Shown here piece after piece: positions 8,608 through 40,563 of a stretch of DNA of 40,563 nucleotides. Source of the DNA: a virus. The translations under genes were made by a program, and so were the position numbers. The stretch lies in IMG/VR virus record IMGVR_UViG_3300011442_000007; one strand, 5' to 3'. A model generated the notes under the pieces. It was not told the origin of the DNA. It worked only from the letters and a program-made list of their open reading frames with translations, and did not search any database. How positions within the stretch are numbered: the first letter of the stretch is position 1; each line of letters begins with the position of its first letter.

Positions 8608-8615
8608 GAGCAACC

Positions 8616-24847: not shown

Positions 24848-25022
24848 GAATTGGATCGAGAAGTCACCTTACAAAGGTAAGGTGGTGGATGGATGCGTGA
24901 TAGTCACTGAGTGGATATTGGTCGAATGGGTCAAAGATCAGCCGGCTAGGACATTCATCAGCGGCTTGGATCAGGTCAAAGCCAAGTGGTTGGAGTGGGA
25001 TGCCAAGCCTTCAGATACCTGA
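24825..25022 (+). CDS. Small protein (65 aa) whose first 7 residues (MPSLQIP) duplicate the N-terminus of the large terminase
   Basis: GTG at 24825 is in frame in ORF 24747..25022. It has the same 23-nt overlap geometry as the terL start. The differences from terL codons 2-7 are all synonymous. Confidence 0.4.
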   Translation: MPSLQIPKNWIEKSPYKGKVVDGCVIVTEWILVEWVKDQPARTFISGLDQVKAKWLEWDAKPSDT

Positions 25023-26274
25023 GAAGCTAGAGGGCCTCCTAAGCCCCAATAGCTACAAAGTCATCTACGGCGGCCGGGGCTCGACCAAGTCATGGTCGGT
25101 AGCGGAAGTCCTAGTGATGCGGGCCACTATGGAGCCGCTGCGCATCCTGTGTGCTCGGGAGACGCAAAAGAGCATCGAGGAGTCGGTCCACTACCTCATC
25201 AAAGCTACCATCGAACGCCTCGGGGTCCAGTCCCTGTTCGATGTCCAACAGAACCACATCCTCGGCATTGAGTCGGGGGCGTTGTTCAGTTTCATCGGCA
25301 TCCGACAGCAGAACGTAGTCAACCTCAAGAGCTTCGAGGCGGTGGATATCTGCTGGGTGGAGGAGGCTGCGGTAGTCACTCGCAAGTCATGGGAAACCCT
25401 GATCCCGACCATTCGCAAGCTCGGGTCTGAGATTTGGGTCACGTTCAACCCCGAACTTGATACCGACGAGACTTACCAGCGGTTTGTGCTCGACCCGCCC
25501 GAGGGGGCCTGGGTTCAGGAGATCAACTGGCGGGATAACCCTTGGTGGAACGATAAGCAGGAGAAGGACCGGCAGTATCTCGAACGCCGGAATCCGCTTG
25601 AGTATCAGACGGTCTATGAAGGCAAGTGCCGGCCAGCGGTCGAGGGAGCCATCTATGCACAAGAGCTTGACGCACTACAGCGTAGCGGTAGGTTCACCAC
25701 CGTTTCTCACGATCCACTGCTCAAAACACATACCGTATGGGATCTGGGCTGGAACGATCAAACGGTTATTCTCCTCGTACAGCGGGCCGCTTCGGAGCTA
25801 CGAATCATCGGGGCCTACATCTCCCGATTCTCGACCTACGAGCAGGACATCTCGGAACTCGACGCGCTCAAGGCCACCTGGAAGGGCCTAGCCTGGGGCA
25901 CGGACTACCTTCCCCATGATGCCAAAGCAAAGAGCAAGAGTTCAGGTGGCCGATCAGCAGAGGAGATCGTGAAACAGCTAGGCCGACAGGTGGAGATTGT
26001 CCCCATCGACTACATCGAGAATGGGATCAAGTTAGTACGCACTATCTTCCCTAGGCTTTGGATCGATTCCAGTGCAAAAGACTGGCTGAATGCCATCAAA
26101 CGCTACCATCGTCACGTGACGGTAGACGGGTCTAAGACAGGGCAGCCTGTCCATGACGATGCCTCGCACGGGGCGGATGCGCTGAGGTATCTAGCCCAGG
26201 TGGCTGACAAACTCCACAACCACGACACCCACAAGTGGGGGGAACTGGCTTACTCCAATGCAGGAATTGTCTGA
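25000..26274 (+). CDS. terL: Terminase large subunit (PBSX/Terminase_3-like)
   Basis: YKVIYGGRGSTKSWS (Walker A), LRILCARETQKSIEES, and a C-terminal nuclease-like region with HDDASHGADALRY. Confidence 0.9.
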   Translation: MPSLQIPEKLEGLLSPNSYKVIYGGRGSTKSWSVAEVLVMRATMEPLRILCARETQKSIEESVHYLIKATIERLGVQSLFDVQQNHILGIESGALFSFIGIRQQNVVNLKSFEAVDICWVEEAAVVTRKSWETLIPTIRKLGSEIWVTFNPELDTDETYQRFVLDPPEGAWVQEINWRDNPWWNDKQEKDRQYLERRNPLEYQTVYEGKCRPAVEGAIYAQELDALQRSGRFTTVSHDPLLKTHTVWDLGWNDQTVILLVQRAASELRIIGAYISRFSTYEQDISELDALKATWKGLAWGTDYLPHDAKAKSKSSGGRSAEEIVKQLGRQVEIVPIDYIENGIKLVRTIFPRLWIDSSAKDWLNAIKRYHRHVTVDGSKTGQPVHDDASHGADALRYLAQVADKLHNHDTHKWGELAYSNAGIV

Positions 26275-26283
26275 AAGGACCGA

Positions 26284-26481
26284 ATGAGCGCAGCCCTCTT
26301 CGCCAAGATGCACGAGCAGAACCTGCGAATCCTCTCGCTTGAACGCCAGGTGGAAGAATTGGCAAGACAAGTGAACGCACACTTGCTAGAATCTCTCAAC
26401 GCTGAACGCGCCGTCTCCATTCCGAGACGTGGAAGACCGCGTAAGGTTGTGGGGGATCATGGACATTCTGGCGGCAATTGA
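26284..26481 (+). CDS. Hypothetical small coiled-coil protein (65 aa)
   Basis: ORF track. Lies between terL and the portal gene. Confidence 0.45.
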   Translation: MSAALFAKMHEQNLRILSLERQVEELARQVNAHLLESLNAERAVSIPRRGRPRKVVGDHGHSGGN

Positions 26482-28699
26482 GTACCAGGAAGACCTAGCT
26501 TCTAGTCGGGGCGACCTCGACACCGAGCGATCCGAAGCCCTCGACCGATATCTCGGCCGTCCCTACGGGGATGAGCAGCAAGGCCGCTCTCAGGTCGTGA
26601 TGCGCGATGTGTCCGACACCATCGAGTGGATCAAGCCCTCCCTGCTAAAGATCTTCGCCTCAGGCGATGAGGTAGTCCGCTTCGACCCTACGGGGCCGGA
26701 GGACGAGGAGCAGGCCCAGCAGGAAACGGACTACGTCAACTACGTGGTGAACCAGAAGAATAACGGGTTCATCATCTTCCACGACTGGTTCCACGACGCC
26801 CTGCTCCAGAAAACAGGCTATGTCCTGGTTCAATACCTCACCGAGAAGCAGCAAAGCCGGGAGACGTACAAAGGTCTTACGGAAGACGAGATGGCCCTAC
26901 TGGCTAAGGACGGAGTGGAAATCCTCCAGCACTCAGCCTACCCCATCACATCGGGAGGAATCGGGCCCCAAGGGGAGCAAATCCCCCCGGTGATGCTGCA
27001 TGACATCGTCGCCCAGCAGACGAAAGAGTACGGATGTGAGAAGCTGTTCAACATCCCCCCCGAGCAGGTTCTAGTCGCTCATGACTGGCCCAATGTTGAC
27101 TTCGAGGATTGCCCGTTCCTGGAAATCATCGACTACCCGACCATCTCTGCTCTGAGGCAGAACGGGTATGAAGTCGAGGACGATATCTCTGACGATTCGT
27201 CCGACATCAACGAGATGGATACCCGGATTCGTCGCTCCGTGGAGGGTGACGACCTGTTCGAGCCTGGGGATGATGGAGGTTCTGATCCATCGATGCGCCG
27301 TGTCAAGTGTCGGTATGCATGGATGATGATCGATGTAGACGAGGATGGGATCGCGGAGCTTAGAAAGTTTGTCATCGTCGGGTCCACGATCCTCAACGGG
27401 GATGAGGGCGAAGAGACAGACCTGATTCCCGTAGCGGCGATCACCCCGATTCGACAGCCACATGAACACTACGGCCTGAGCCTGGATGACGTTGTCCAAG
27501 ACCTTCAGCGGATCAGGACCGTCCTGGTTCGAGGATTCCTGGACAACATGTACGTCACCAACAACAGCCGGCACGCTGTTAATGCAAACCTCGTAAACCT
27601 GGATGACCTTCTGGTCACTCGTCCTAACGGCGTGGTCCGTGTCAACGGCGACCCGAATCAGGCAATCGCACCAATCATCACGCAACCGAACGGTCCCGCG
27701 ATTCTCTCTGCGGTCGAGTACATCGACTCCATCCGGGAATCCAGAACTGGTGTCACTCGGTACAACCAGGGTCTAGATGCCAACTCGCTGAACAAGACAG
27801 CGACCGGGATCACACAGATCATGACCGCTGCGCAGCAGCGCATCGAGATGATCGCCCGCATCTTCGCAGAGACAGGGGTCAAGTCCCTGATGCTCATTGT
27901 TCATGCGATGGCGATCAGGAACGGCTCATCTCAGGAGAAGATGAAGCTGCGGAACAAGTGGGTTCCGGTCAATCCTCAGGAGTGGAAGACCCGGAAGAAT
28001 CTCACCGTCGCTGTTGGTCTAGGCACAGGTAACAAAGATCAGATGCTCCAGCACCTGATGATGATCCTGACCGCTCAGAAGGAAGCGCTCCCTCTAGGAC
28101 TGACAGGACCGAAGGAAATCTACAACGCCCTCGCCAGGCTCACTCAGAACGCCGGATTCAAGCAAACCGAGGAGTTCTGGAAAGACCCCGGGGACAATGC
28201 TCAATTGCCTGCTCCTCCAAACCCTGAAGCGATCAAAGCTCAAGCAGAGGCTCAAAAGACCCAAGCCCAACTCCAAGCCGACCAGCAAAAGACGCAGGCG
28301 CAACTCCAGGCGGATGCGCAGAAGTTCCAAGCCCAAGCGGCGATTGACCAGGAGCGGATGGCGTTTGAAGCGTCGGAGAAGGAGAAGGACCGACAGTTGC
28401 AACTCCAGATCGTTCGCGAGCAAGAGGCGACAAAGCTCGCCATCGAGAACGCGAAACTGGAGCATCAATCGAACACGATGGCCCAGTCTCAATCCTTCGA
28501 GGCAGAGAAGCTAGGGGCTACATTTGCCAGGGAAGACGCCAAAGAGGCCCAGGTTCAGGAAAAGACCCAGGAGAAGGACGACGGCATGTCGGAACTCCTA
28601 AAAGGTGTTCAAGACGCCCTCGGGATGCTGGCAAAAGAGATGGGACGCCCGAAGAAGCTAATTCGGGGGCCGGACGGCAAAGCGATTGGTGTTCAATGA
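26459..28699 (+). CDS. Portal protein (746 aa from the ATG at 26459)
   Basis: Size, position after terL, the N-terminal motif RYLGRPYGDEQQGRSQVVMRDVSDTIEWIKPSLLKIF, and a C-terminal Q/A-rich coiled coil. Confidence 0.85.
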   Translation: MDILAAIEYQEDLASSRGDLDTERSEALDRYLGRPYGDEQQGRSQVVMRDVSDTIEWIKPSLLKIFASGDEVVRFDPTGPEDEEQAQQETDYVNYVVNQKNNGFIIFHDWFHDALLQKTGYVLVQYLTEKQQSRETYKGLTEDEMALLAKDGVEILQHSAYPITSGGIGPQGEQIPPVMLHDIVAQQTKEYGCEKLFNIPPEQVLVAHDWPNVDFEDCPFLEIIDYPTISALRQNGYEVEDDISDDSSDINEMDTRIRRSVEGDDLFEPGDDGGSDPSMRRVKCRYAWMMIDVDEDGIAELRKFVIVGSTILNGDEGEETDLIPVAAITPIRQPHEHYGLSLDDVVQDLQRIRTVLVRGFLDNMYVTNNSRHAVNANLVNLDDLLVTRPNGVVRVNGDPNQAIAPIITQPNGPAILSAVEYIDSIRESRTGVTRYNQGLDANSLNKTATGITQIMTAAQQRIEMIARIFAETGVKSLMLIVHAMAIRNGSSQEKMKLRNKWVPVNPQEWKTRKNLTVAVGLGTGNKDQMLQHLMMILTAQKEALPLGLTGPKEIYNALARLTQNAGFKQTEEFWKDPGDNAQLPAPPNPEAIKAQAEAQKTQAQLQADQQKTQAQLQADAQKFQAQAAIDQERMAFEASEKEKDRQLQLQIVREQEATKLAIENAKLEHQSNTMAQSQSFEAEKLGATFAREDAKEAQVQEKTQEKDDGMSELLKGVQDALGMLAKEMGRPKKLIRGPDGKAIGVQ

Positions 28700-30623: not shown

Positions 30624-31382
30624 GTGAATTTCCTAAGGCCCTATGTCCGGCAGATAGTCTACGCGGGGTCGTTCGATGCGACAGCAGCGACCACTGTCGC
30701 GGCGACCTTTCCGCTAGCGGTACTCGGTGGCGCGGCCATCTACACCTGCGTCACCTGGGAACCCACAGCCGGACTGAGCGGGGTTTCTGACGGCACCGCG
30801 TACAAAGCCCTGCCGAAAGGGCTCATCAACGACGGCGTCAACAACCAAAGCGCGCAGTGTCACGTCCGAGAGGGCGTGCTCCCTAGTGCCTATACCGTCA
30901 CAGCGACTTTCGCAAGCACGGTTGCCTTCCGGCGCTTGGTGATAATCGAGATTGCGAACCAGTATCAGGGAATCAGTCTCGACTTTGACGCCGGGCAACA
31001 CCAGCAGAATCCAGGAACCGGAGCCAATGCGGTTTCATCGACAGCCACGGCTGTAACTTGGTCCGGGTTCGATGAACTGATCCTCGGGATTGCATGTCGC
31101 ACGGGTGGCGGAAGAACCGCGGATGCAACCGCGGGGACAGGCTACACACTCGAAGGCTCGGTGGACTCCCTGAAGGTCTACAGCGTCGAATCCAAGATCA
31201 GCGAAACCATCGCGGCGCAGACGGCTACTTTCACGCTCGCCACGGATGGGGCGACAGCGGACGTTACAACCTTCGTCCTGGCGATCAAATCCGGCATGGC
31301 GATGCCCAGTGTTGATTGGCTTCAGTTCGGAGCCAAGGGATTGCCTCACTCTGCCCTCTACAAAGTGGACGACTGGCTATGA
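30624..31382 (+). CDS. Hypothetical beta-rich virion-module protein (252 aa)
   Basis: ORF track. GTG start. Confidence 0.5.
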   Translation: MNFLRPYVRQIVYAGSFDATAATTVAATFPLAVLGGAAIYTCVTWEPTAGLSGVSDGTAYKALPKGLINDGVNNQSAQCHVREGVLPSAYTVTATFASTVAFRRLVIIEIANQYQGISLDFDAGQHQQNPGTGANAVSSTATAVTWSGFDELILGIACRTGGGRTADATAGTGYTLEGSVDSLKVYSVESKISETIAAQTATFTLATDGATADVTTFVLAIKSGMAMPSVDWLQFGAKGLPHSALYKVDDWL

Positions 31383-32710
31383 GCCGTCTCCTACGTGTAG
31401 AGAAGTGGTTCGATGACTGGCTGGAACCATCGGCCGCCGCTCCCGCTGCGCCTCCACAACGGCTGTACCTATGGAAGCCGATTGCGCTTGTCGTGCTCGG
31501 TTTCTTCCCAGCGGAGGAAGTAAGCCAAGCCAATCACACGCAGCGGCTGTTCTTCGGTCGCACGACCCCAACGGTGGTCGGAGCGCCGTGGTATCTGTGG
31601 AAAGCGCCTCTAAGAGTAGATGCCGAGGAGGATATCTATCGAGGCGCGAACCACACACTCCTTCATCGATACCGGCAGTCGTTCCAGACCGTAGGACAGA
31701 ACTACCGGCAGTGGCCGCCTCCCGCAAAGGGTGACCAGAGCGTAGAACCAGAGCAGCGCGTCGAACAGAACACGCTGCATCGGTTCAGGACGCGGTATCA
31801 GACCGTCGGGCAGCCTTTCTCGCTGTGGCCTGGGCCTCAAAAGCGGATCGAGGCGGATGAGTACACGATCCCGCCCCCGGTTGACCTAACCGAGTTCAGG
31901 AATAGTCCACCTGCTGTAGCCCAAGCGGGGCAGCCGTTCTTCATCTGGCCTCGCATCCTCGCCAAGGTAGAGGCCGAGGAATACACCGTTCCCGGTCCTA
32001 GCCTGTGGCCGATCACGCGGGTTACAACCACCATCACCCAGCCCGGGCAGCCGTGGTGGGCCTGGCCGAGTGCCAAAGCAGATCAGACCCTAGAGCCTGA
32101 TGCGCAGCGGGTCGATCACCTGCTACTTCATCGGTACCGGGTCGGGTATCAAACGGTCGTTCAGTCGTGGCAATACTGGATCAAGCCTCACCCGCAAAGG
32201 GAAGCCGAGGAATACACCGTTCCTGGGCCGGCGAGTCTGTACCCGTTCCGACAGATCACGGTCGCGCCTCCTGTCGGGCAGCCGTGGTACATGTGGCCGG
32301 CAGCGGTCGCGGATCAGAGCGTCGAGCCGAATCCGGTTGTCACGGATCACGCGGGGGCTCTTTATCCGTTCCGGCCGCATGATGCGATCACGCCGCCTGT
32401 TCCTGAGGCAGTTACTGGCGCCCCAGGGAGGTATCGGTACGTTATCTATATCAACGGCCGCAGACATATCGGCTTCGAGGATGAGATCCGGGCGCTCATC
32501 GCCTCGATGGCTGAAAAGGACGCCGATGCCGTCATCGAAGGCAAAAAGGCCCCCAAACGCCGGATTGTCGTCCAGCCTGGGAAGCCGTTCGAGCACGAAA
32601 AGCCTGATTTCGTGGCGATGCAGATCGACTTCCGAAAGGTCTACCAAGAAAAGTTAGCGCTCGCTATACTAGAGAACGATGACGACGAAGACTGGCTGCT
32701 GCTCCTATGA
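31379..32710 (+). CDS. Trp-rich internal-repeat protein with an acidic C-terminal tail (443 aa)
   Basis: ATGA coupling. Reiterated modules: LLHRYRxxYQTVGQ, GQPxxxWP and EAEEYTVPGP. C-terminus NDDDEDWLLLL. Confidence 0.6.
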   Translation: MSRLLRVEKWFDDWLEPSAAAPAAPPQRLYLWKPIALVVLGFFPAEEVSQANHTQRLFFGRTTPTVVGAPWYLWKAPLRVDAEEDIYRGANHTLLHRYRQSFQTVGQNYRQWPPPAKGDQSVEPEQRVEQNTLHRFRTRYQTVGQPFSLWPGPQKRIEADEYTIPPPVDLTEFRNSPPAVAQAGQPFFIWPRILAKVEAEEYTVPGPSLWPITRVTTTITQPGQPWWAWPSAKADQTLEPDAQRVDHLLLHRYRVGYQTVVQSWQYWIKPHPQREAEEYTVPGPASLYPFRQITVAPPVGQPWYMWPAAVADQSVEPNPVVTDHAGALYPFRPHDAITPPVPEAVTGAPGRYRYVIYINGRRHIGFEDEIRALIASMAEKDADAVIEGKKAPKRRIVVQPGKPFEHEKPDFVAMQIDFRKVYQEKLALAILENDDDEDWLLLL

Positions 32711-33006
32711 GTCCTGAAGAGGAAATCATCCGCTCCAACGAGGCCGAACGGCTCATGAACGAGCCGATGGTCAAAGAGGCGCTCGAAAAGATCGAGGCGG
32801 GGCTTCTGGACTCGATGAAACGGTGCCCACTAGGCGATATCGAGACACAACATAGGTTAGTGCTCACTTTGCAGTTGCTTGGTAACTTCAAAGGCCATTT
32901 TCAAGAGGCGATGACGACCGGGAAACTGGCTCGCCAGCAGATCACCAATCTTCAAAGCGACCCCCTTACGCAAAAGGCCGGCCGCAAACTTAGGAGCATC
33001 TTCTGA
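32707..33006 (+). CDS. Hypothetical head-module protein (99 aa)
   Basis: ORF track. ATGA coupling. Immediately upstream of the scaffold gene. Confidence 0.5.
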   Translation: MSPEEEIIRSNEAERLMNEPMVKEALEKIEAGLLDSMKRCPLGDIETQHRLVLTLQLLGNFKGHFQEAMTTGKLARQQITNLQSDPLTQKAGRKLRSIF

Positions 33007-33941
33007 TGGCTCAAATCAACGACGACGCGCAGGTTCAAAGCGATCAAGAAATCGAGAATGCGCTCTTCGAGAAGTTGACCCCGAAGACCGAAACGGTTGA
33101 AAAGGAAGAACCCGAGGTAGAAGGACAACCCGAGACAGAGGATGAGGCAGCCGATGGCCAAGCCGAACCCGAAGTCGAAGACCCTGATACCGAGGAATTC
33201 GAGTTCCAAGGGAAGACCTACAAGGCCCCGAAAGAACTCAAGGAAGCGGTGCTACGTCAAAAGGACTACACCGAAAAGACCATGTCTCTTGCCGAAGAGC
33301 GAAAGCTCGTTCAGCACGAACGTGAAACGCTCAAGATGCAATCGGAGTTCCAGAGCAAGTATTCCGAACACATGGGCAAGCTCACAGGCATGGAAAGCCA
33401 GCTAAAGCAGTACGAGGGTGTCGACTGGGAGGCCCTGCTCAGAGCCGACCGGGATCAATACTACCTCCATCGCGACAAGCGGCAGGATCTACTGAACGCC
33501 TACCAAAGTCAACACGGACACCTGCAGAATCTGACCGCTGAGTTCCAGCGTGAGATGACGGCTCAGAGGGAGAAAAAGCTCCAGGCCGGCAAACAGATGC
33601 TGCGGCACGAGTTCAAAGACGAACCGGCCGATCTTGGGGACCGGATGCTGAAGGTGGGCGAGAGTTACGGCTTCACCCGTCAAGAGTTGGACATGCTGGA
33701 CGATCCCCGCCAGGCGCGGGTGTTGCGCGACGCTATGAAGTGGCGCGAACTCCAGACGGCCAAGCCGCAGGTACACAAGCGAGCCGATCAGGCAAAGCCG
33801 GTCAAAGTGACTACTGCCCGCTCGACTCAATCCACCCAATCAGCGGCCCAAGTAGACAATCTCCGAGCAACGGTCAAGAAAACCGGCAGCGACAAAGCTG
33901 CGGAAGACCTGTTTACGAAGCTGCTATCTCGTAAGAGGTAA
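33006..33941 (+). CDS. Scaffolding protein candidate (311 aa)
   Basis: Acidic N-terminus and a long charged helical or coiled-coil sequence. Lies directly upstream of the major capsid gene. Confidence 0.65.
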   Translation: MAQINDDAQVQSDQEIENALFEKLTPKTETVEKEEPEVEGQPETEDEAADGQAEPEVEDPDTEEFEFQGKTYKAPKELKEAVLRQKDYTEKTMSLAEERKLVQHERETLKMQSEFQSKYSEHMGKLTGMESQLKQYEGVDWEALLRADRDQYYLHRDKRQDLLNAYQSQHGHLQNLTAEFQREMTAQREKKLQAGKQMLRHEFKDEPADLGDRMLKVGESYGFTRQELDMLDDPRQARVLRDAMKWRELQTAKPQVHKRADQAKPVKVTTARSTQSTQSAAQVDNLRATVKKTGSDKAAEDLFTKLLSRKR

Positions 33942-33943
33942 TC

Positions 33944-34912
33944 ATGGCTCAAGTATCTGGTACCACCGACACCATTGACCTTGTCGGTGTGGCCGAAGAC
34001 GTTGAAGACGCAATCTTCAACATCAGTCCCACGGAGACTCCGTTTCTGACGATGGCGAAGCGCAAAGACGCCTCGAACATCACTCATCAGTGGCAAACCG
34101 ACGCATTAGCCGCTGCGGCCGCGAACCGCACGATTGAAGGCGACGACGCTACATTCGTGACCGCGACCCCGACGGTGATGCTGCAAAACCGCTTGCAGAT
34201 CGCTCGCAAGACGCTGATCGTGTCCGACACCGCGGATGTGGTACGGAAGTACGGCCGAGCCCGTGAAACGGCCCGCCTGCTGGTGAAGTACGGCAAGGAA
34301 CTGAAGCGCGACATGGAATTCGCCCTGGTCACAAACCAGGCAAGTTCCATTGGCGGCTCTTCGACTGCCCGTTCATCGGCGGGGATGGAATCGATGATCG
34401 CCGGGAATCGGATCATCGCCTCTGGCAACACGACCGGGACGACACCCGGTTACGGTGGCGCGGACTGGACTACTCCAACGGATGGAACTGCGACCGTCAC
34501 AGTGACGGAGGCGCTGCTGAAATCCGGGATTCAGGCCGCATGGGATGACGGTGGCGATCCCTCCGTCATCATGATCCCGTATGCCCAGAAGGGACAGATC
34601 GCCACGTTCACGGGTGCGGCGAAGTACGCAGGCGCCTACACCAACAACGGGCGGGCACAAGCCGCCCTGATTGGTGCGGTGGATGTGTACATCTCGGACG
34701 CTGGGGACCACAAGTTGATGCTCAATCGGTACGTGCGTACGCGGACCATTCTCGGGATCGACCCCGAGTATTGGTCGGTCGCATTCCTCCGAGGCATTCG
34801 TTCCGTCCCGCTGGCGAAGACCGGCGACGCCACAAAGAGCATGCTGCTTGCCGAGTTCTGCCTGGTTGGCGACAACCCGGACAGTTCGTTCAAGCTTCAG
34901 GATATGGCCTGA
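33944..34912 (+). CDS. Major capsid protein (HK97-fold, DUF5309/SU10-like family)
   Basis: The N-terminal signature EDVEDAIFNISPTETPFLTMAKRKDASNITHQWQTDALAAA...EGDDATF. GAGG RBS. Followed by a terminator hairpin. Confidence 0.85.
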   Translation: MAQVSGTTDTIDLVGVAEDVEDAIFNISPTETPFLTMAKRKDASNITHQWQTDALAAAAANRTIEGDDATFVTATPTVMLQNRLQIARKTLIVSDTADVVRKYGRARETARLLVKYGKELKRDMEFALVTNQASSIGGSSTARSSAGMESMIAGNRIIASGNTTGTTPGYGGADWTTPTDGTATVTVTEALLKSGIQAAWDDGGDPSVIMIPYAQKGQIATFTGAAKYAGAYTNNGRAQAALIGAVDVYISDAGDHKLMLNRYVRTRTILGIDPEYWSVAFLRGIRSVPLAKTGDATKSMLLAEFCLVGDNPDSSFKLQDMA

Positions 34913-34917
34913 TCTTT

Positions 34918-34935
34918 GGCCCTTCGGGGCCTTTT
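34918..34935 (+). terminator. Weak rho-independent terminator (GGCCC-TTCG-GGGCC followed by TTTTCTC)
   Basis: 5-bp GC stem, TTCG tetraloop and a T-run, 6 nt after the capsid stop. Confidence 0.5.
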
Positions 34936-34938
34936 CTC

Positions 34939-35268
34939 ATGGACCTGATCGACAAACGATTCACCAAAGGTGGAATGCTGGAAAAGGCATCCATCGAGGA
35001 TGGAAATCTTCACCTTCAGACGTTTCAGGACATTGAGCCGAACGTCGAAATGGTGAAGGCCATGAGAAAAGACTCCGACTACACCGCGCGAGGAATCAAA
35101 CGAGAGTTCGCGCATTCCCTCCATATCTCAGAGGTTCACGTTGTCGCCCTCCTCAATGCAGGGGTGAACGTCTACACAGCGCCAACGAAGGACATCGTGG
35201 CGGGGCTTGTGAGACTTGATCTGCTAGAAGCGTGTCGGGTGACAGATAAGAAACTCTGGAGAGGCTGA
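34939..35268 (+). CDS. Hypothetical protein (109 aa)
   Basis: ATG at 34939 within ORF 34771..35268, just after the terminator. Confidence 0.5.
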   Translation: MDLIDKRFTKGGMLEKASIEDGNLHLQTFQDIEPNVEMVKAMRKDSDYTARGIKREFAHSLHISEVHVVALLNAGVNVYTAPTKDIVAGLVRLDLLEACRVTDKKLWRG

Positions 35269-36675
35269 GTGAGCCTCAAAACAGCCTACGCGCTGTCGCA
35301 GGAAGATCCCGACGCAGCGGCGAAGATCGCCAACGACATCCTGCGTGACGACACGGAGAACGCGGGTGCCCTGTACCTCCTAGGGACCGTCCACGCCAAA
35401 GCAGAACGGTTCGGAAACGCCCTGCCGATCTTCGAGAAGGTGGTCCGGTTAGTCCCTCGCAGACACGAAGCGTGGAACTACCTTGGGATGTGCCAGCAGG
35501 AGTGTCATGAGTTCGATAAGTCGAACCAGGCTTTTCGCAAGGCCATCGATTGGGCAGATAAGGCCAAATCACCACCCGAGACGACAGCGAACTATCTAGC
35601 TAACCTGGCTAGTTCGTACTCTGGACAGGGGAACTACTCAGAGGCCATCCGGTGGTGCAAAAGGGCTCTTGAGAAGGATCCAGAACACTCTGGAGCATTG
35701 ACTACCCTAGGCTTCGCTCAGATCGCTACGGGTGACTGGCAAAACGGCTGGAAGGGATATGAAAACTGCCTCGGAGGCCGATTCAGAAAGATCGTCCAGC
35801 TAGGAGACGAGCCCAAGTGGGATGGCTCCTATGTCGAGAACCTGTTCGTGTACGGAGAGCAGGGCCTCGGTGACGAACTGATGTACGCATCGTGTCTGGA
35901 AGATATCAAAGCCGGGCACATCACGCTGGAATGTGATCCGAGGTTAGAGGGGTTGTTCAAACGCTCATTTCCACATATCGAAGTCCATGGAACACGCAGA
36001 AAAGACCCCTACTGGGCCGAAGGCAAGACTTTCGACGCTGGATGTGCTATCGGCAGCCTGCCGGCTCTGTTCAGACCCACTCGTGAATCCTGCCCTAAAA
36101 AGCCGTATCTCATCGCTGATGCAGAGCGGCGACTACAGTGGCGTGCGTTGTTTGATTCTTGGGGCAAACCAGTCATCGGGATCGGATGGACCGGAGGCCG
36201 AGCAGCAACCCAGGCCAAAGCACGAAAGGTCGGTCTAGAAGCGTTTCGTCCGATCATCGAAAGCGTTGACGCAGTTTTCGTCAGCGTCCAATACATCGAC
36301 CCTCGGGAAGAAATCGACACCACTGGACTTCCGGTAAGGCATCTCCCTCGCGCGGTGCAAAGTCCGGACTACGACGACACGGCTGCTTTCGTTGCGGAGC
36401 TTGACTATCTGATTGCTCCACCGACGACAATCCATCACATGGCGGGAGCGATGGGCAAAAGCAGCTTGATCCTTGTCCCAAGTCAACCCATGTGGGACTG
36501 CGCCTACTCAGAATCGTGGCCGTGGTACCAGGAACAGAAATTCTTCCGACAGAAGAAAGATGAGACCTGGGCCGATTGTCTAAGGAGATTGAATGAACTT
36601 CGTATTCATTGGCTACGACCCGAGGCAGCCTCTCGCGTACAACGTGCTTCAGCACTCGATTGTGAGACATGCTAG
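35269..36675 (+). CDS. TPR-repeat protein fused to a GT9-like (GT-B) glycosyltransferase domain
   Basis: The N-terminal 150 aa show TPR-like helical pairs (AGALYLLGTVHAKAERFGNALPIFEKVV, EAWNYLGMCQQE, ANLASSYSGQGNYSEAIRWCKRALEKDPEH). The C-terminus has GEQGLGDELMYASCL and DDTAAFVAELDYLIAPPTTIHHMAGAMGKSSLILVP, which match heptosyltransferase-family motifs. Confidence 0.7.
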   Translation: MSLKTAYALSQEDPDAAAKIANDILRDDTENAGALYLLGTVHAKAERFGNALPIFEKVVRLVPRRHEAWNYLGMCQQECHEFDKSNQAFRKAIDWADKAKSPPETTANYLANLASSYSGQGNYSEAIRWCKRALEKDPEHSGALTTLGFAQIATGDWQNGWKGYENCLGGRFRKIVQLGDEPKWDGSYVENLFVYGEQGLGDELMYASCLEDIKAGHITLECDPRLEGLFKRSFPHIEVHGTRRKDPYWAEGKTFDAGCAIGSLPALFRPTRESCPKKPYLIADAERRLQWRALFDSWGKPVIGIGWTGGRAATQAKARKVGLEAFRPIIESVDAVFVSVQYIDPREEIDTTGLPVRHLPRAVQSPDYDDTAAFVAELDYLIAPPTTIHHMAGAMGKSSLILVPSQPMWDCAYSESWPWYQEQKFFRQKKDETWADCLRRLNELRIHWLRPEAASRVQRASALDCETC

Positions 36676-37246
36676 CGAGCCAGTAGCCATCTGCCCGCTG
36701 ATCCTCAAGCAGCTTCCGATCAAACGCAAAGGCTTGACGGAGTTCACATACTCTCGCTTCTTGGTCCCGTACATCTGCGGGTTCAAAGGCAGGGCTTTGT
36801 TCCTCGATGCCGATATGGTCGTTACTGGAGACGTGTCGGAACTCTTCAACAGCGAGGAGATGAGCGCTGTATCAGTCATGCAGGAACAGCCGAAATTCGA
36901 GTGGGCCAGCATGATGATGTTCAACTGCTCTGCTTGTTCCAGACTGACTCCTGAGTTCATCGACAATGAAGAAAATCAGCTATTCGACCTTAAGTGGGCT
37001 CCATATGTCGGGAAGTTAGACCCATCGTGGAATCACTGCGTTGGCTATCAAGAACCGAAGGACGCGAAGCTGTATCACTACACCCAAGGTCTCCCGTGTT
37101 TCCCTGAGACTCAGGGGCTCCCAGAAGATGCGGTGTGGAACCGCGAATCCGACCTGATGAACTCCACCGTGTCGTGGAAGGAATTGATGGGTAGATCGGT
37201 TCACCGGGAGCCTGTGTTGAGAAGGTTACTTTCCAAGTACCAATGA
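36593..37246 (+). CDS. GT8-like (GT-A, DxD) glycosyltransferase
   Basis: AAGGAG lies 5 nt upstream of the ATG. RALFLDADMVVTGDVSELF is the GT8-type DxD motif. The gene starts 83 nt inside the preceding ORF. Confidence 0.6.
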   Translation: MNFVFIGYDPRQPLAYNVLQHSIVRHASEPVAICPLILKQLPIKRKGLTEFTYSRFLVPYICGFKGRALFLDADMVVTGDVSELFNSEEMSAVSVMQEQPKFEWASMMMFNCSACSRLTPEFIDNEENQLFDLKWAPYVGKLDPSWNHCVGYQEPKDAKLYHYTQGLPCFPETQGLPEDAVWNRESDLMNSTVSWKELMGRSVHREPVLRRLLSKYQ

Positions 37247-38076
37247 TCGGTGTGACATGGATGTGGACCCATCCAAAGCTGGCTTCGGCCCGCTTGCGGA
37301 ACAACATCCCTTCCCAGGTTCTGAAACTGCGCGGCGTTGTGAAAGACGGCACCGATCTAATCATCGCGTCTAAGCACAACTGGGACGTTTCGACCGTCCG
37401 AAAGCGCTTCAAGCGTATGATCTTCGATGTCTGCGACGATCACTTCTCAGACTCAAGAAGGGAGCACTATCTCCATGCCTGTGAGGTCGCAGACCAGATC
37501 ACTTGCAACTCCGAGGTAATGCGTGAAATCATCGAGCGCGAGACCCACCGTCGAGCAACTGTCATCGACGATCCGTACGAGGATGCAGAGCTTGCGCCGG
37601 ACGGAACTGGCTCTGGCGTCCTGTGGTTTGGACACTCCCTCAATCTCCCGGACCTTGAACGAGTTGCTCCCTCTATACGTCACCCTCTTACGGTTGTCGC
37701 CAGCCACAACTACACACCGGAGCACCTAGATGCCTGTCTCAAAGCGTGCCGCGTTGTCATCTTGCCTACGGGCAAATCGCAAGCAAAGAGCGCGAACCGT
37801 GCAGTTAGGTCAATCAGATACGGCAAGTATCCAATATGCGGACACCTACCCGCGTACGGTGAACTCGGATTGGGAAACGACGATTTGGGACTCGCACTTG
37901 ACCGGGCCTATGAGAGTACCGACTCGGATTTGGTGGCGCGTGTAAGAGCACTTCAAGACTTGGTGAGAGTGCGGTTCTCGCCTGACCTGGTATCGGATGC
38001 TTGGGAGAAAGTAATTTGCGGCTCAATCTCGGGTGCGGGACGCGAAAGCTTGAAGGCTTTACTAACTGCGACCTGA
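37243..38076 (+). CDS. Putative glycosyltransferase (GT-B-like; weak)
   Basis: ATGA coupling. The C-terminal half VLWFGHSLNLPDL...ILPTGKSQAKSANRAVRSIRYGKYPIC resembles GT-B nucleotide-sugar-binding halves. Context also supports the call. Confidence 0.4.
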   Translation: MIGVTWMWTHPKLASARLRNNIPSQVLKLRGVVKDGTDLIIASKHNWDVSTVRKRFKRMIFDVCDDHFSDSRREHYLHACEVADQITCNSEVMREIIERETHRRATVIDDPYEDAELAPDGTGSGVLWFGHSLNLPDLERVAPSIRHPLTVVASHNYTPEHLDACLKACRVVILPTGKSQAKSANRAVRSIRYGKYPICGHLPAYGELGLGNDDLGLALDRAYESTDSDLVARVRALQDLVRVRFSPDLVSDAWEKVICGSISGAGRESLKALLTAT

Positions 38077-38498
38077 CCGATGCCGATGTGATCTGCGATG
38101 TATTCCAGAGACTCCCGTTCGGCAACGAGACAGCAGACGAGATTCACGCTTACCACGTCTTCGAGCACTGCTACCGATACGACTGCGAGGCGATCCTCAA
38201 AGACTGGGTGCGAGTCCTTAAGTACGGCGGGAAACTTGTCTTAGAACTCCCGTGCCTCGACAGCATCATCCAGATATTCAACTGGCATATTGAGCGAGAG
38301 AAGCCAATCCCGGTGAACCTGACGATGTGGGGCTTGTTCGGCGATCCATCGTGGAAACGGCCGGAGATGACGCATCATTGGTGCTATTCCCAAGCCGAAC
38401 TTGGTGACTTGATGACGAAAGCTGGCTTGGTGGTCACGTTCCACAAAGCACAGACCCATCAACCGATCAGAGACATGCGGGGCGAGGGCATCAAGTGA
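38001..38498 (+). CDS. Class I SAM-dependent methyltransferase
   Basis: LNLGCGTRKLEGFTNCD (motif I), HVFEH, and VLKYGGKLVLELP (post-II/III). The TTG start is uncertain and overlaps the upstream gene by up to 76 nt. Confidence 0.65.
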   Translation: MGESNLRLNLGCGTRKLEGFTNCDLTDADVICDVFQRLPFGNETADEIHAYHVFEHCYRYDCEAILKDWVRVLKYGGKLVLELPCLDSIIQIFNWHIEREKPIPVNLTMWGLFGDPSWKRPEMTHHWCYSQAELGDLMTKAGLVVTFHKAQTHQPIRDMRGEGIK

Positions 38499-38998
38499 AC
38501 AACTCGGTTCTAACCTTCGCCAAAAAACATAGGGGGAAGATCAGTGGAAACGTCCTCGAAGTTGGAAGCCAGATTGTTAATGGCACTGTGCGTGACGTTC
38601 TCGCTATCAGCGTTGGGTGCGATATGGTGGACGGTCCCGGAGTGGACCAAGTTGTCGATTCTTCTGGCCTGCTGGTTCAGTTTGGGCCTGACTCTTGGGA
38701 CTGCGTTGTTTCTTGTGACGCACTGGAACACATGGCGGCATGGAAAGACGCCATAGAGAACATGTGGGGCGTCCTGAAGCCAGAAGGGCTCCTGTTCCTG
38801 ACCCTGGCCAACCCAAGGAAGGGCTATCACGGCTACCCTTCGGATTACTGGAGGTGGCCCATGGAGCGGTTCAAGCTGCTTTTCGGGCAGAACGAGATAC
38901 TGGACACTTTCTTTGAGGGCCCATCAATGGGAGTGCTTGTTAGGAAGGGCTCACATCCGTTAGACTTGAGCATCAAGCCAGACCCCGTGAGGCGATAG
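38495..38998 (+). CDS. Second class I SAM-dependent methyltransferase
   Basis: VLEVGSQ (motif I), VVSCDALEHM, and VLKPEGLLFLTL. GTGA coupling. Confidence 0.6.
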   Translation: MNNSVLTFAKKHRGKISGNVLEVGSQIVNGTVRDVLAISVGCDMVDGPGVDQVVDSSGLLVQFGPDSWDCVVSCDALEHMAAWKDAIENMWGVLKPEGLLFLTLANPRKGYHGYPSDYWRWPMERFKLLFGQNEILDTFFEGPSMGVLVRKGSHPLDLSIKPDPVRR

Positions 38999-39595
38999 AT
39001 GGCTCTGAATACCTATGCGGACCTGAAAACGTCGATCCTGGATTGGTCCAACAAAACCAATCTGACAGCGATGGCGCCGGATTTCGTCAGGCTCGCGGAG
39101 TCGAAGATTCGCAAGAAACTGCGCACCCGTGACCAACTCACTGCGCTGCCGATCACGCTCACGGACGACTTAGGAAGCCTCCCGACAGACATGCTGGAGG
39201 TTCGGTCGGTGGTGGTTGATGGAAACGTGCTTTCCTACGTTCCCGAGGAAGTCTACGACCAGCTGGCCGAGTTCGCTACCGACCCCATCAACTACACCTT
39301 CTCGGGCTCACAGATCAAAGTTGCCGGCGGCGGGGACTCGACTGCGAGACTTGACTACTATCACGCCTACACCGCTTTATCGGCCGCCAGCGACACGAAT
39401 TGGGTGCTGACCAATGCCCCCGAGGTCTACCTGTACGGGAGCCTTGTAGAGGCGTTTGACTACCTCCGCGATGGAGTGGAGCGCGACAGGTACATGCAGA
39501 AGTTCGAGCAGACCGTGGCCGAACTGAACCTGACCGAGAAAGTGTCCCTCTCCGCTGGACCGATGAGAGTGCGACCGGACACCTTTACCCCATGA
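38999..39595 (+). CDS. Putative head-to-tail adaptor / tail accessory protein (198 aa)
   Basis: Position and size are comparable with the podovirus gp4/gp11 class. ATGA coupled to the downstream 483-aa ORF. The functional call rests on context only. Confidence 0.4.
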   Translation: MALNTYADLKTSILDWSNKTNLTAMAPDFVRLAESKIRKKLRTRDQLTALPITLTDDLGSLPTDMLEVRSVVVDGNVLSYVPEEVYDQLAEFATDPINYTFSGSQIKVAGGGDSTARLDYYHAYTALSAASDTNWVLTNAPEVYLYGSLVEAFDYLRDGVERDRYMQKFEQTVAELNLTEKVSLSAGPMRVRPDTFTP

Positions 39596-40563
39596 TCCCA
39601 TTCATAGGATTTGTTCCCGACGTCGATGAACTGACGCCAGGCGCGATCCTGGATGCCAGCCAGATCATCCCAACGCAGAAGGGGATACAGGCATGCCCAT
39701 CCACGGTAACAGCAGGCCCATCTGCCTTACCTGCGGAATGCCGGGGCGCCGCTCTGCTACGGAATCTGTCTGGCGTGAACCGGCTTATTGCGGGGACCAG
39801 TACGAATTTATTCGAAGCTGGGTCCACGGCATGGGGCACAGTCTCCGCTTCGTCCGCTGGTTACAGTCTCGGAACGGACGACCGATGGAGCTTCTGCCAG
39901 TTCGGCAACTCAGCAATCGCGGCGACGATCAGCGAGAAAATACAACGTAGCACCAGCGGCAACTTCGCGACGATCACTGCCGCACCCAAAGCCCAGATCG
40001 TCGAATCACTCAAGGGGTTCGTCCTTGCGCTACATACCAACGAAACTACCTTCGGTGATAGTACAGATCGATGGTTTTCCTGCGCTCAGTATGATGAGAC
40101 TGACTGGACCCCAAGTGTCGCAACTCAGTGCGCTACCGGCCGCCTCGTTGAAGGCGGCGGTCCTATCACTGCTGGCAGGAAGCTCGGCGACGATCTCATC
40201 GTCTACAAACGCCGAGCCATGTTCATCGGCCGATACGCCGGTCCTCCCTCAGTCTGGGACTTCGTCCAAGTCACAACGGAAATCGGGTGCGTTGGGCAAG
40301 AGGCGGTCATAAACATTGGATACGCCCACATCTTCGCTGCTGAGGACAACATCTATCTATTTGATGGGGTCCGACCACAGTCAATCGCTGATGGGAAAGT
40401 TCGAGAGTGGTTCACCAGCAACCTCAACCCGGTCTATAACTACCGGACAAAAGCCTTCTGGGACAAGCGAAGAAACCTCGCGTGGATCTTCTTCGTCTCC
40501 ACCGGAGGATCGTCAATCTGCGACTCCGGCCTGGTTTACCACACGCTCACAGGTCGATGGGGA
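39592..40563 (+). CDS. 5' portion of a wrap-around ORF (about 483 aa in total with 124..603); putative tail hub/nozzle-type protein
   Basis: The ATG at 39592 overlaps the upstream TGA. Hand translation shows no stop before the window end. It is absent from the ORF track because it is unterminated. It is in phase with frame 1 at the window start. Confidence 0.6.
   Translation, partial: MIPFIGFVPDVDELTPGAILDASQIIPTQKGIQACPSTVTAGPSALPAECRGAALLRNLSGVNRLIAGTSTNLFEAGSTAWGTVSASSAGYSLGTDDRWSFCQFGNSAIAATISEKIQRSTSGNFATITAAPKAQIVESLKGFVLALHTNETTFGDSTDRWFSCAQYDETDWTPSVATQCATGRLVEGGGPITAGRKLGDDLIVYKRRAMFIGRYAGPPSVWDFVQVTTEIGCVGQEAVINIGYAHIFAAEDNIYLFDGVRPQSIADGKVREWFTSNLNPVYNYRTKAFWDKRRNLAWIFFVSTGGSSICDSGLVYHTLTGRWG
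40441..40563. repeat. Exact direct repeat of 1..123
   Basis: Identical 123 nt at both window ends. Confidence 0.95.

Follow-up and report, generated by a model that had tools for sequence, protein, structure and literature searches.

The five-gene cassette at positions 35269-38998 (+ strand) of a freshwater-type podophage is best read as a virion protein O-glycosylation system, through which one of the structural proteins of the phage may acquire a putative methylated sugar coat; judging from the sequences and structure models, we hold this reading with about even confidence. The window, that is, the whole stretch of DNA analyzed (IMG/VR record IMGVR_UViG_3300011442_000007; 40,563 nucleotides), is a complete 40-kb genome. 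The five ORFs lie on the same strand, coupled or overlapping, bounded upstream by an SU10-type major capsid gene with one further small ORF and downstream by an SU10-type adaptor gene, exactly where a sequence-only reading of this DNA had placed them. The features of the region are as follows (GT, glycosyltransferase).

33006-33941: scaffold, upstream of the cassette
33944..34912, + strand: major capsid protein (SU10/DUF5309 type); Pfam SU10_MCP 2.3e-81, PHROG major head protein 1.3e-83
34424..34507, + strand: Gly/Thr-rich capsid loop G161-T188 (GNTTGTTPGYGGADWTTPTDGTATVTVT); acceptor candidate of the sequence-only reading, not established
34918..34938, + strand: terminator-like hairpin and T-run; 5 G-C pairs, 4-nt loop, tail TTTTCTC
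34936..35268, + strand: small conserved head-module ORF, about 110 aa; no Pfam or PHROG family, outside the enzyme set
35269..36675, + strand: protein 1, TPR-glycosyltransferase fusion (TPR-GT), 468 aa; TPR Pfam, AF2/Foldseek, weak GT9
36593..37246, + strand: protein 2, GT8-family GT (GT-A, DxD), 217 aa; PF01501, PHROG 28018
37243..38076, + strand: protein 3, compact two-Rossmann GT-B, GT4-like, 277 aa; structure and weak Pfam in relatives
38001..38498, + strand: protein 4, class I SAM-dependent methyltransferase 1, 165 aa; Methyltransf_11
38495..38998, + strand: protein 5, class I SAM-dependent methyltransferase 2, 167 aa; Methyltransf_11
38999..39595, + strand: head-to-tail adaptor (SU10 type); Pfam SU10_adaptor 3.4e-30, PHROG virion structural protein 2e-41

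The capsid protein also matched PDB sequences 9ny2_A (3.3e-46) and SU10 7z45_A (1.1e-22). The junctions, read from the sequence, were as tight as had been claimed: TGA-GTG at 35266-35271 between the small ORF and the TPR-GT, an 83-nt overlap between the TPR-GT and the GT8 gene starting at ATG 36593, ATGA at 37243 between GT8 and GT-B, a 76-nt overlap at 38001 between GT-B and methyltransferase 1, GTGA at 38495 between the two methyltransferases, and TAG-ATG at 38996-39001 between methyltransferase 2 and the adaptor. The ATG at 36593 is favored as the GT8 start by the N-terminal strand V[FL]IGYDPRQ, which relatives retain; the original gene calls placed the start later, which leaves a 32-nt overlap. 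The weak terminator noted ahead of the cassette is present as the hairpin GGCCC-TTCG-GGGCC (34918-34931) followed by TTTTCTC, directly 3′ of the capsid stop codon on the + strand. Terminator-like sites overall occur in no more than chance number, so only the position of this hairpin is meaningful, and it is probably a leaky attenuator. A search of 32500-40563 for sigma-70-like promoters found none. Since the block is co-directional and coupled, with no promoter-like site and only a weak hairpin, co-expression with the late structural genes is expected, in agreement with the late expression proposed earlier. The small ORF belongs to a family of 44 members found in both cassette-bearing and cassette-less loci, where it lies directly 3′ of the capsid gene and directly 5′ of the adaptor gene, respectively.

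Two bulk properties of the cassette were also as first described. None of the five proteins has a membrane segment by the 19-residue Kyte-Doolittle mean (maximum 1.19 or less), and the block is AT-richer than its surroundings, with a GC content of 0.547 compared to 0.585 for the remaining genome (8th lowest of 369 equal-size windows). The GC dip is genuine yet modest.

All five enzyme calls were confirmed by Pfam or PHROG, by relatives, and by predicted structures, Foldseek having been run on proteins 1 and 3. In the TPR-GT, Pfam detected TPR domains with E-values down to 3e-17; about 4 to 5 TPR pairs occupy residues 1 to 167, and a GT-B catalytic domain (GT9-like) occupies about residues 185 to 445. 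The best PDB matches of its AF2 model (pLDDT 92.9) were SPINDLY, human OGT, and bacterial OGTs, at low TM-scores (about 0.33) that stem in part from the TPR repeats. The capsule polymerase PDB 8qoy was also among the matches; TPR domains occur in capsule polymerases too, which counts against the virion reading. Relatives show little or no variation in the motifs GEQGLGDE and DYDDTAA, and 1525 homologues were found, with 56 to 73% identity among the 120 matches listed.

The catalytic domain of the TPR-GT resembles the GT9 enzymes WaaC/WaaF and TibC/Aah, of which TibC and Aah are GT9-like enzymes able to glycosylate proteins. The phage motif GxxGxGD near the N-terminus and a D-rich helix before TTxxHLAGAxG fit GT9, PF01075 (GT9) gave a weak signal in 11 of 18 relatives, and the structural neighbors of the GT domain alone in BFVD are named GT9/RfaF/Aah-TibC. 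However, the GT9 enzymes lack a TPR domain, this phage's own protein stays below the Pfam GT9 threshold, and its catalytic domain has no significant match among PDB sequences. The same domain has no GT41 Pfam match.

The accessory enzymes were recognized at varying strength. GT8 passes the PF01501 cut-off only barely (25.0 bits versus 24.3), matches PHROG 28018 at 2.7e-16, and has weak matches to the GT8 structure 5gvv in the PDB and to LPS 3-alpha-galactosyltransferase in NCBIfam; FTYSRF...LFLDADMVV, containing the DxD, and HYTxG are kept in 10 relatives, and identity in two related loci, L003 and L005, is 73 to 74%. Protein 3 has no Pfam match of its own, and among its 54 relatives Glyco_transf_4 is weakly detected in 17 and Glyco_trans_1_2 in 11. 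Its AF2 model (pLDDT 95.8) matched SenB, GtfC, Gtf3, BshA, MshA, and SdgB in the PDB (TM 0.53 to 0.71). Methyltransferases 1 and 2 score 32.1 and 30.4 bits, respectively, for Methyltransf_11 (cut-off 21.2), with PHROG matches to methyltransferase (5.5e-08) and SAM-dependent methyltransferase (4.9e-13); motif I of methyltransferase 1, LNLGCG, begins at residue 8.

Conservation across phages showed several trends. First, the TPR-GT occupies the slot between capsid and adaptor genes in 37 of 37 loci of adequate length from one deep capsid clade, with capsid identity down to 43%, which marks it by sequence as a core gene of the clade and no accident. Second, its catalytic domain is conserved as strongly as the capsid protein. 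An example is L003, where identities are 68% for the GT domain, 73% for GT8, and 68% for the capsid compared to 41% for the adaptor and 33% for the scaffold. Third, the TPR-GT and a methyltransferase form a constant core pair across loci, and GT8, GT-B, a second GT9, and an FkbM methyltransferase come and go; a fixed priming enzyme with glycan extenders that diversify would be expected to show such a pattern. Finally, a second podophage lineage (MW202512.1 and four IMG/VR contigs) carries a TPR-GT, an FkbM methyltransferase, and a GT8 directly after a capsid gene whose protein has no detectable sequence similarity to the capsid protein of this clade. Accessory-gene insertion hot spots are common just 3′ of capsid genes, which makes position by itself weak evidence.

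Cellular homologues point to the kind of substrate. They share 30 to 40% identity in the GT domain, are likewise TPR-fused, and in about 15 of 80 genome loci lie directly upstream of one to three type IV pilin genes; further TPR proteins, GT41 enzymes, and methyltransferases occur nearby. This frequent position directly 5′ of pilin genes suggests protein substrates. Similarly, the Ogt gene of S. elongatus adjoins pilA and is required for PilA glycosylation (PMC9306852). OGT and SPINDLY (GT41), including the bacterial OGTs and S. elongatus Ogt, are soluble, with an N-terminal TPR superhelix and a C-terminal GT-B domain, and provide the best structural matches of the phage model. However, the phage enzyme has about 4 to 5 TPRs and a GT9 signal, and, with no GT41 match and a TM of about 0.33, it is not a GT41 member as judged by sequence. 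By analogy, the best mechanistic model is FlmG, the Caulobacter flagellin O-glycosyltransferase, a modular, soluble enzyme whose TPR domain binds its structural-protein substrate, flagellin, and whose C-terminal GT-B domain glycosylates Ser/Thr in the cytoplasm, ahead of assembly of the subunit into a large polymer (PMC7591256). The likeness is one of architecture: FlmG uses pseudaminic acid as donor and flagellin as substrate and has no attached GT8/GT-B/methyltransferase set.

Under the virion protein O-glycosylation reading, the five genes would make up a late-expressed, cytoplasmic, lipid-carrier-independent module. The TPR superhelix at the N-terminus of the TPR-GT, the proposed substrate-recognizing and priming enzyme, would bind a phage structural protein, and its GT-B domain would start the glycan by moving a sugar from a nucleotide-sugar of the host to Ser/Thr, as in OGT, SPINDLY, and FlmG. 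GT8 and the compact GT-B, the proposed extending enzymes, would lengthen the glycan, the two SAM methyltransferases would methylate it, and the glycosylated protein would be built into the virion to give a sugar-coated particle.

Among the structural proteins, the major capsid protein is the most likely acceptor; the adaptor, nozzle, and fibre proteins are alternatives. The earlier proposal that the Thr-rich capsid loop is the acceptor was not supported. Cassette-bearing capsids carry an [ST]-rich stretch with TTPG[FY] and an APTDGT motif compared to GASGGF/SGADPTT/GANGQV in cassette-less capsids, and TTPG[FY] is confined to the former. However, the region tolerates indels, and cassette-bearing capsids are essentially one clade plus L062, so the motif correlation amounts to one or two evolutionary events. 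Nor were Ser/Thr positions enriched: nine Ser/Thr columns are specific to cassette-bearing and nine to cassette-less capsids, and overall Ser+Thr content is not raised (0.183 versus 0.192). The virion-glycan interpretation as a whole is supported in its enzymes, their solubility, the late operon, and a plausible action on proteins instead of membrane-anchored polysaccharide, and it is strengthened by the 37-of-37 slot, the second lineage, the OGT/SPINDLY-like model, and the pilin linkage; its capsid-loop acceptor is not established.

Other readings were weighed against this. It is possible, though unlikely, that the enzymes remodel the host envelope, with LPS core or a different glycolipid or polysaccharide precursor as their substrate on the cytoplasmic side of the inner membrane; such a late cell-surface change could, for example, keep progeny or competing phages off infected cells and debris. 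The waa clusters for LPS core also combine a GT9 (heptosyltransferase-like), a GT8 (RfaI/RfaJ family), and a GT4-like GT-B, and their enzymes, too, are soluble or peripheral, which counts against the virion reading. The cassette set matches these clusters, all five proteins being soluble like the Waa enzymes, and the NCBIfam match of GT8 and the JGI label "ADP-heptose:LPS heptosyltransferase" on several homologues point the same way. In addition, a pectate-lyase-like tail protein suggests a polysaccharide receptor, and a GC content slightly below that of the genome is frequent in acquired accessory genes. However, LPS heptosyltransferases have no TPR domain, and the cellular homologues that share the architecture of the TPR-GT show linkage to pilin rather than waa genes. 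A strict position in the head-to-tail block with capsid-level conservation over a deep clade is unusual for surface-conversion genes, and with late expression LPS would have little time to turn over.

Less probable still is glycosylation of a host protein, in which the TPR-GT would target type IV pilin, flagellin, or another abundant protein and the other enzymes would elaborate the glycan, blocking pilus- or flagellum-dependent superinfection or taking over host functions. Pilin glycosylation blocks pilus-specific phages, and the closest cellular relatives of the TPR-GT adjoin pilin genes. Bacterial TPR-GT enzymes glycosylate pilin and flagellin (PMC9306852, PMC7591256). However, the phage TPR part is only 22 to 47% identical among phage relatives, is about 165 aa long compared to 270 to 350 aa in the cellular proteins, and has no tie to pilin. 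Exclusion genes are normally early or prophage-expressed rather than placed in the middle of a late head-tail operon, the portion of the ORFs scanned showed no integrase, and the polysaccharide-lyase-like tail domain speaks against this phage using a pilus as receptor.

Decoration of modified phage DNA bases to evade restriction is very improbable: GT-A/GT-B enzymes glycosylating 5-hydroxymethylpyrimidines are widespread in phages (bioRxiv 10.1101/2023.12.21.572611, PMC13326640), and the genome encodes a DNA N6/N4 methylase (20669-21562), but the ORFs scanned in this complete genome include no dCMP/dUMP hydroxymethylase, thymidylate-synthase-like, TET/JBP, or DpdA-type gene, the cassette lies in the structural operon rather than the replication module, TPR is a protein-binding module, and in many samples the genome could be assembled and closed from ordinary short reads, which speaks only weakly against heavy modification.

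The virion glycosylation reading has two viral precedents. In chlorovirus PBCV-1, A064R combines two glycosyltransferase domains with a methyltransferase domain, and viral cytoplasmic GTs and a sugar methyltransferase likewise decorate the major capsid protein with a methylated glycan; however, PBCV-1 is a eukaryotic giant virus with atypical N-linked glycans, unrelated enzymes, and no TPR targeting module. A review covers this machinery (PMC9614988). In mycobacteriophages, Freeman et al. 2023 (Cell Host Microbe), as summarized in PMC12619734, reportedly describe soluble GT genes beside structural genes and O-linked glycans on capsid and tail-tube subunits. As here, these are soluble enzymes of tailed phages encoded beside structural genes and are taken to act in the cytoplasm before or during assembly; however, the hosts are actinobacterial, the phages are siphoviruses, and the glycans sit on subunit C-termini. 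The mycobacteriophage system is not known to include a TPR-fused enzyme or paired methyltransferases. The two are compared by description, the mycobacteriophage system being experimentally proven and the podophage cassette known from computation alone.

Literature searches agree with the earlier statement that no equivalent has been described in this phage type, and mycobacteriophages and giant algal viruses are the only viruses for which virion glycosylation has so far been demonstrated. For this podophage clade, a sugar coat may bring shielding, stability, less non-productive adsorption, or evasion of recognition.

The first and last 123 bases of the window were identical (1-123 = 40441-40563), which means that it is a complete phage genome of ~40.44 kb, assembled as a closed circle. 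The genes considered here were as follows.

6814-8607, pectate-lyase-like tail protein
16347-17225, minus strand, pentapeptide-repeat protein
17460-18497, minus strand, 345-aa ORF
25000-26274, terminase
26429-28699, SU10-type portal
31316-32710, plus strand, 464-aa ORF
33006-33941, scaffold
33944-34912, SU10/DUF5309-type major capsid protein
34936-35268, small ORF of ~110 aa
35269-36675, plus strand, protein 1, TPR-glycosyltransferase (TPR-GT)
36593-37246, plus strand, protein 2, GT8-like glycosyltransferase
37243-38076, plus strand, protein 3, GT-B glycosyltransferase
38001-38498, plus strand, protein 4, methyltransferase
38495-38998, plus strand, protein 5, methyltransferase
38999-39595, SU10-type adaptor
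39595 onwards, past the window end, virion structural protein

A lysozyme gene is also encoded. At the DNA level the phage has no close deposited relative, as the region 33000-40563 gave zero matches among 50,697 phage records. The capsid protein was at most 39% identical to any in these deposited genomes, with matches that included Sinorhizobium phiM5, LUZ24-like Pseudomonas phages, Methylophilales phage Venkman, and Pelagibacter HTVC106P. The 464-aa ORF just 5′ of the scaffold region contains about six internal repeats with a unit of ~45 aa carrying the motifs GQP[WF]x[LIWM]WP and EAEEYTVPGP; Pfam and PHROG gave no family for it, and its product may be an internal or ejection protein. Among the early genes on the minus strand, the pentapeptide-repeat gene (Pfam, 4.5e-56) and the adjoining 345-aa ORF lie in a stretch with a GC content of 0.69 to 0.72 compared to the genome mean of 0.58. 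The pentapeptide-repeat protein could be a DNA mimic or an anti-defence candidate.

The five ORFs of the enzyme block, with their coordinates and junctions (TGA-GTG, ATGA, GTGA, TAG-ATG, and two longer overlaps), were all borne out as the sequence-only reading had placed them. The 83-nt overlap presupposes the ATG at 36593 as the GT8 start, and automatic callers picked a later one. This start was nevertheless accepted because the stretch V[FL]IGYDPRQPLAYNV, encoded 5′ of the callers' start, is conserved in relatives. The same overlap (36593-36675) encodes, in the other frame, the C-terminal tail of the TPR-GT (residues 452-468, low model confidence). A similar tail (…SGVQR[AS]…) was present in two loci of relatives, L003 and L005, and absent from two others, L004 and L007, so both reading frames are apparently retained by some members of the clade. 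The weak terminator noted earlier was found at 34918-34931, 3′ of the capsid stop codon, as a short hairpin of G and C followed by a run of T. No promoter-like site was found in the whole of 32500-40563, and the block is therefore most simply transcribed together with the late structural genes. Hydrophobic stretches fitting a membrane helix are absent from all five proteins, in agreement with the earlier remark that none has an obvious TM segment. The AT richness that had been judged by eye was real, if slight: the GC content is 0.547 in the block compared to 0.585 in the remaining genome, the 8th lowest of 369 equal-size windows.

Profile, motif, and structure evidence supported all five enzyme calls made from the sequence. 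Protein 1 (468 aa) has 4 to 5 TPR pairs in residues 1-167 (Pfam matches spanning residues 8-168) and, after these, a GT-B domain. The AlphaFold (AF2) model (pLDDT 92.9) shows 10 helices and then, in residues 189-443, the alternating beta-alpha elements of the two Rossmann-like domains of a GT-B fold; an N-terminal TPR array joined to a C-terminal GT-B catalytic region is the architecture of the GT41 enzymes OGT and SPINDLY. When the whole model was compared to the PDB using Foldseek, the best matches were Arabidopsis SPINDLY, human OGT, and bacterial OGTs, which made up nearly all of the top 41, although the TM-scores to SPINDLY/OGT were only ~0.33 and much of the signal came from the TPRs. 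Sequence matches in the PDB to OGT and SPY were likewise confined to the TPR part (query residues 13-168), and neither protein 1 nor any of 18 relatives matched PF13844 (Glyco_transf_41). For the catalytic domain of the window protein, Pfam, including PF01075 (GT9), gave no match. PF01075 was weakly matched by 11 of the 18 relatives (best E 1.4e-4), and a cellular homologue scored 20.2 bits against a cut-off of 22. A profile of the domain found no GT9 and nothing significant among PDB sequences, only sub-threshold NifH noise. Among the predicted viral structures of BFVD, the neighbours matching the catalytic domain alone were annotated as GT9, RfaF, or Aah/TibC. The motifs GEQGLGDE and DYDDTAA...TT..H.AGA.G were invariant or nearly so in the relatives. 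By sequence, protein 1 is not a member of GT41 and appears to be a marginal relative of GT9 only; by its architecture, it may work like OGT, SPINDLY, or FlmG. The Caulobacter enzyme FlmG is soluble, with an N-terminal TPR domain that binds its flagellin substrates and a C-terminal GT-B domain that glycosylates them (PMC7591256), and protein 1, which has no membrane segment, fits this type in its architecture.

The GT8 assignment of protein 2 is based on a marginal PF01501 match (25.0 bits compared to a gathering score of 24.3, residues 42-92 only), a weak PDB match to 5gvv ("Glycosyl transferase family 8"), and PHROG 28018. In protein 2 itself the DxD motif reads LFLDADMVV; all of 10 relatives have D-[AGC]-D at this site, and a HYTxG near the C terminus is also conserved among them. 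Protein 3 matched no Pfam family, and its relatives weakly matched Glyco_transf_4 (17 of 54, best 1e-3) and Glyco_trans_1_2 (11 of 54, best 9.8e-6). A profile search of PDB sequences with protein 3 gave only noise. The AF2 model (pLDDT 95.8) is a compact GT-B with best Foldseek matches to SenB, GtfC, Gtf3, BshA, MshA, and SdgB at TM 0.53 to 0.71; with PimA in place of SdgB, the range was TM 0.58 to 0.71 with E-values of 5e-08 to 1e-05. GtfC and Gtf3 are serine-rich-adhesin enzymes. As modelled, the fold of protein 3 is closest to GT4-type enzymes. Proteins 4 and 5 are class I SAM methyltransferases (Methyltransf_11, 32.1 and 30.4 bits compared to a cut-off of 21.2) and matched no PDB sequence.

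Protein 1 was rare among deposited phages, matching 7 of the 50,697 records, all distantly; one match, in Rhizobium phage RHph_X2_30, was to a 1,178-aa multidomain protein with an uninformative gene context. In a metagenome protein collection, its catalytic domain had 1,525 homologues. The best 120 of these were TPR fusions with 56 to 73% identity, many of them on contigs of 40 to 47 kb, which matches the size of this genome. Three such contigs had the gene order capsid, ~105-aa ORF, TPR-GT, GT8, GT-B, methyltransferase, adaptor. We also collected 80 IMG/VR loci via the capsid protein and mapped nine window proteins onto all of them. The TPR-GT was found between capsid and adaptor in 37 of the 80, whose capsids were 43 to 68% identical to that of the window; in 24 the gap was filled only by small ORFs (~90 to 130 aa, typically three), and 19 were too short to judge.

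Some trends were apparent in these loci. First, on the capsid tree the cassette-bearing loci formed one deep clade plus a separate lineage (L062), and every long-enough locus of the clade had the TPR-GT. Second, the catalytic domain and GT8 were conserved like the capsid protein and far more than the adaptor or scaffold. For example, the identities to L003 were 68% for the catalytic domain, 73% for GT8, and 68% for the capsid compared to 41% for the adaptor and 33% for the scaffold. This level of conservation means that the TPR-GT behaves as a core gene under strong purifying selection rather than as a passenger, and it is conserved as such in more than a thousand metagenomic relatives. Third, the small ORF belongs to a family of 44 members, with homologues in L049 to L085, that lies directly 5′ of the adaptor gene in cassette-less relatives. 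The enzymes were thus inserted between the small ORF and the adaptor, and the small ORF is a conserved head-module protein that marks the insertion point. Finally, the insert has a constant part, the TPR-GT and a ~170-aa protein with a weak methyltransferase signature, and a variable part, which includes GT8, GT-B, a second GT9 (L029), an FkbM methyltransferase, and uncharacterised proteins (L007). A constant priming enzyme with a changing extending and capping set is as expected for a system in which the acceptor stays fixed and the glycan built on it diversifies.

In one sub-clade a GT8 homologue was located ~6 kb 5′ of the capsid gene (L010:1841-2530, L011:1167-1796, L018:1877-2566, L028:2043-2681, and others), and the TPR-GT and methyltransferase remained between capsid and adaptor. 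In relatives, HNH/homing endonuclease genes were found around the capsid gene and even within the cassette (L005:4215-4748 and 5972-6550; L001:10472-10948 and 2500-3003), and mobile endonucleases seem to have a hot spot here.

A similar arrangement was found in a second group of phages, made up of MW202512.1, an uncultured Manatee Spring podovirus, together with four IMG/VR contigs. These share the order capsid, one or two small ORFs, TPR-GT, FkbM methyltransferase, GT8, 208-aa protein, and then a gene homologous to the one 3′ of the adaptor in the window. The TPR-GT was 28% identical to protein 1, and GT8 was 39% identical to protein 2. Sequence similarity between the capsid of this group and the window capsid was not detectable, so two lineages with different capsid families carry the cassette right behind the capsid gene.

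Cellular relatives were sought by scanning 185,579 species-representative genomes with the catalytic domain, which gave 431 stretches; the best 80 were kept as loci. The large bacterial contigs with homologues were from Burkholderiales, Methylococcus, Rhodospirillales, Planctomycetota, and Acidobacteriota. The homologues, often tandem paralogues, were 460 to 740 aa long with N-terminal TPRs and a C-terminal GT domain. A type IV pilin ORF (GFTLIELMIVVAIIGILAA...) was present in 20 of these best 80 loci, and in ~15 of the 20, one to three tandem pilin genes started directly 3′ of the TPR-GT on the same strand (L093, L094, L097, L099, L103, L107, L109, L110, L111, L113, L116, L119, L130, L132, and L160). 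For instance, in L099 the TPR-GT at 6846-8849 is followed by pilins at 8915-9439 and 9379-9942. Pfam confirmed two of the downstream pilins (Pilin and N_methyl), and a Pfam census of 117 neighbouring ORFs gave Pilin (5), Glyco_transf_41 (4), Methyltransf_11/25 (4), and many more TPR proteins. The hosts of the pilin-linked loci were Burkholderiales, Methylococcus, and related MAGs. They could be orthologues of one another and so reflect few independent events; despite this, the linkage is far above that of a random gene. There is a published precedent for the arrangement in Synechococcus elongatus, in which the gene for the soluble TPR-GT41 enzyme Ogt adjoins pilA and the glycosylation of PilA depends on Ogt (PMC9306852). 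Judged by gene content, the pilin-linked bacterial loci look like an uncharacterised cytoplasmic pilin glycosylation locus. The closest "genome" matches (L087, L088, and L089; 49 to 52% identity) were phage-like contigs in MAGs of unrelated taxa (Nitrososphaerota, Sediminibacterium, and Aquincola); they are probably mis-binned phage contigs and allow no reliable host assignment.

The best-supported reading of these sequences and models, about evenly poised between right and wrong, is that the block would be a soluble, late, OTase-independent protein O-glycosylation module with a phage structural protein as its target. The TPR domain of protein 1 would select the structural protein and its GT-B domain would attach the first sugar; GT8 and GT-B would then lengthen the glycan, and the methyltransferases would cap it. 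The same enzymes could instead remodel the LPS core or another part of the envelope, since GT9, GT8, and GT4-like enzymes make up the waa set and are likewise soluble. However, this is unlikely given that protein 1 carries a fused TPR domain, that its cellular homologues are linked to pilin genes, and that the genes are strictly placed and conserved within the head-tail block. The cellular context also points to a host protein such as pilin as a possible glycosylation target, but late expression and a tail that appears to be directed at polysaccharide do not sit well with this reading, and we consider it distinctly improbable. DNA hypermodification was set aside as very improbable because no base-modification pathway genes were found in the complete genome.

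If the module acts on a phage structural protein, the identity of the acceptor may differ from that first proposed, the Thr-rich capsid loop at residues 161-188. The loop has a motif (an [ST]-rich stretch, TTPG[FY], and APTDGT) that is confined to cassette-bearing capsids, with GASGGF, SGADPTT, or GANGQV at this site in cassette-less ones, and the region tolerates insertions, as a surface loop would. However, the cassette loci are essentially monophyletic on the capsid tree (one or two events), and the correlation between motif and cassette is therefore not independent evidence. The motif was absent from the capsid of the MW202512.1 lineage, and no motif common to the loop and the pilins beside cellular homologues was seen. 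Comparison of the capsids showed no enrichment of Ser/Thr, either overall (Ser+Thr of 0.183 in cassette-bearing compared to 0.192 in cassette-less capsids) or by column (9 clade-specific Ser/Thr columns in each group), and for this reason we do not endorse the loop as the acceptor. The adaptor, nozzle, fibres, and small ORF are other possible candidates.

To our knowledge, virion glycosylation by phage-encoded enzymes has so far been shown for mycobacteriophages only. It alters the recognition of these phages by antibodies. Chloroviruses have a virus-encoded glycosyltransferase and methyltransferase machinery that acts on their capsid protein. In the mycobacteriophage type, which is established according to the summary in PMC12619734, soluble phage-encoded glycosyltransferases adjoin virion structural genes; the window has the same gene arrangement, and virion glycosylation is a prediction for it. 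In a search of full-text literature, no cassette with a TPR-glycosyltransferase was described for podophages that infect Gram-negative hosts, whether SU10-like or not.

Glycans on the virions, as in the sequence-only reading, are the central prediction, and the case for them is now stronger and broader than that reading could have known. Stated in full, with the balance tilted somewhat against it, the prediction is that the ~40 kb SU10-like podophages, a large uncultured clade, and at least one further podophage lineage may coat their virions with a methylated O-glycan. The priming enzyme would be their own OGT-like TPR-GT9 fusion, from an uncharacterised family of bacterial cytoplasmic, pilin-linked protein glycosyltransferases. 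This bacterial TPR-glycosyltransferase family encoded beside type IV pilin genes is unstudied, and its members, as soluble enzymes for the glycosylation of proteins, would be of interest as tools in biotechnology. If the prediction is true, effects on phage stability, adsorption, grazing or immune recognition, and phage engineering would be possible. Together with the bacterial pilin loci, the phage cassette would then define a new OTase-independent protein glycosylation system of Gram-negative bacteria and their viruses, and with a second, unrelated system of virion glycosylation, capsid glycans would become a general trait of phages and no longer a curiosity.
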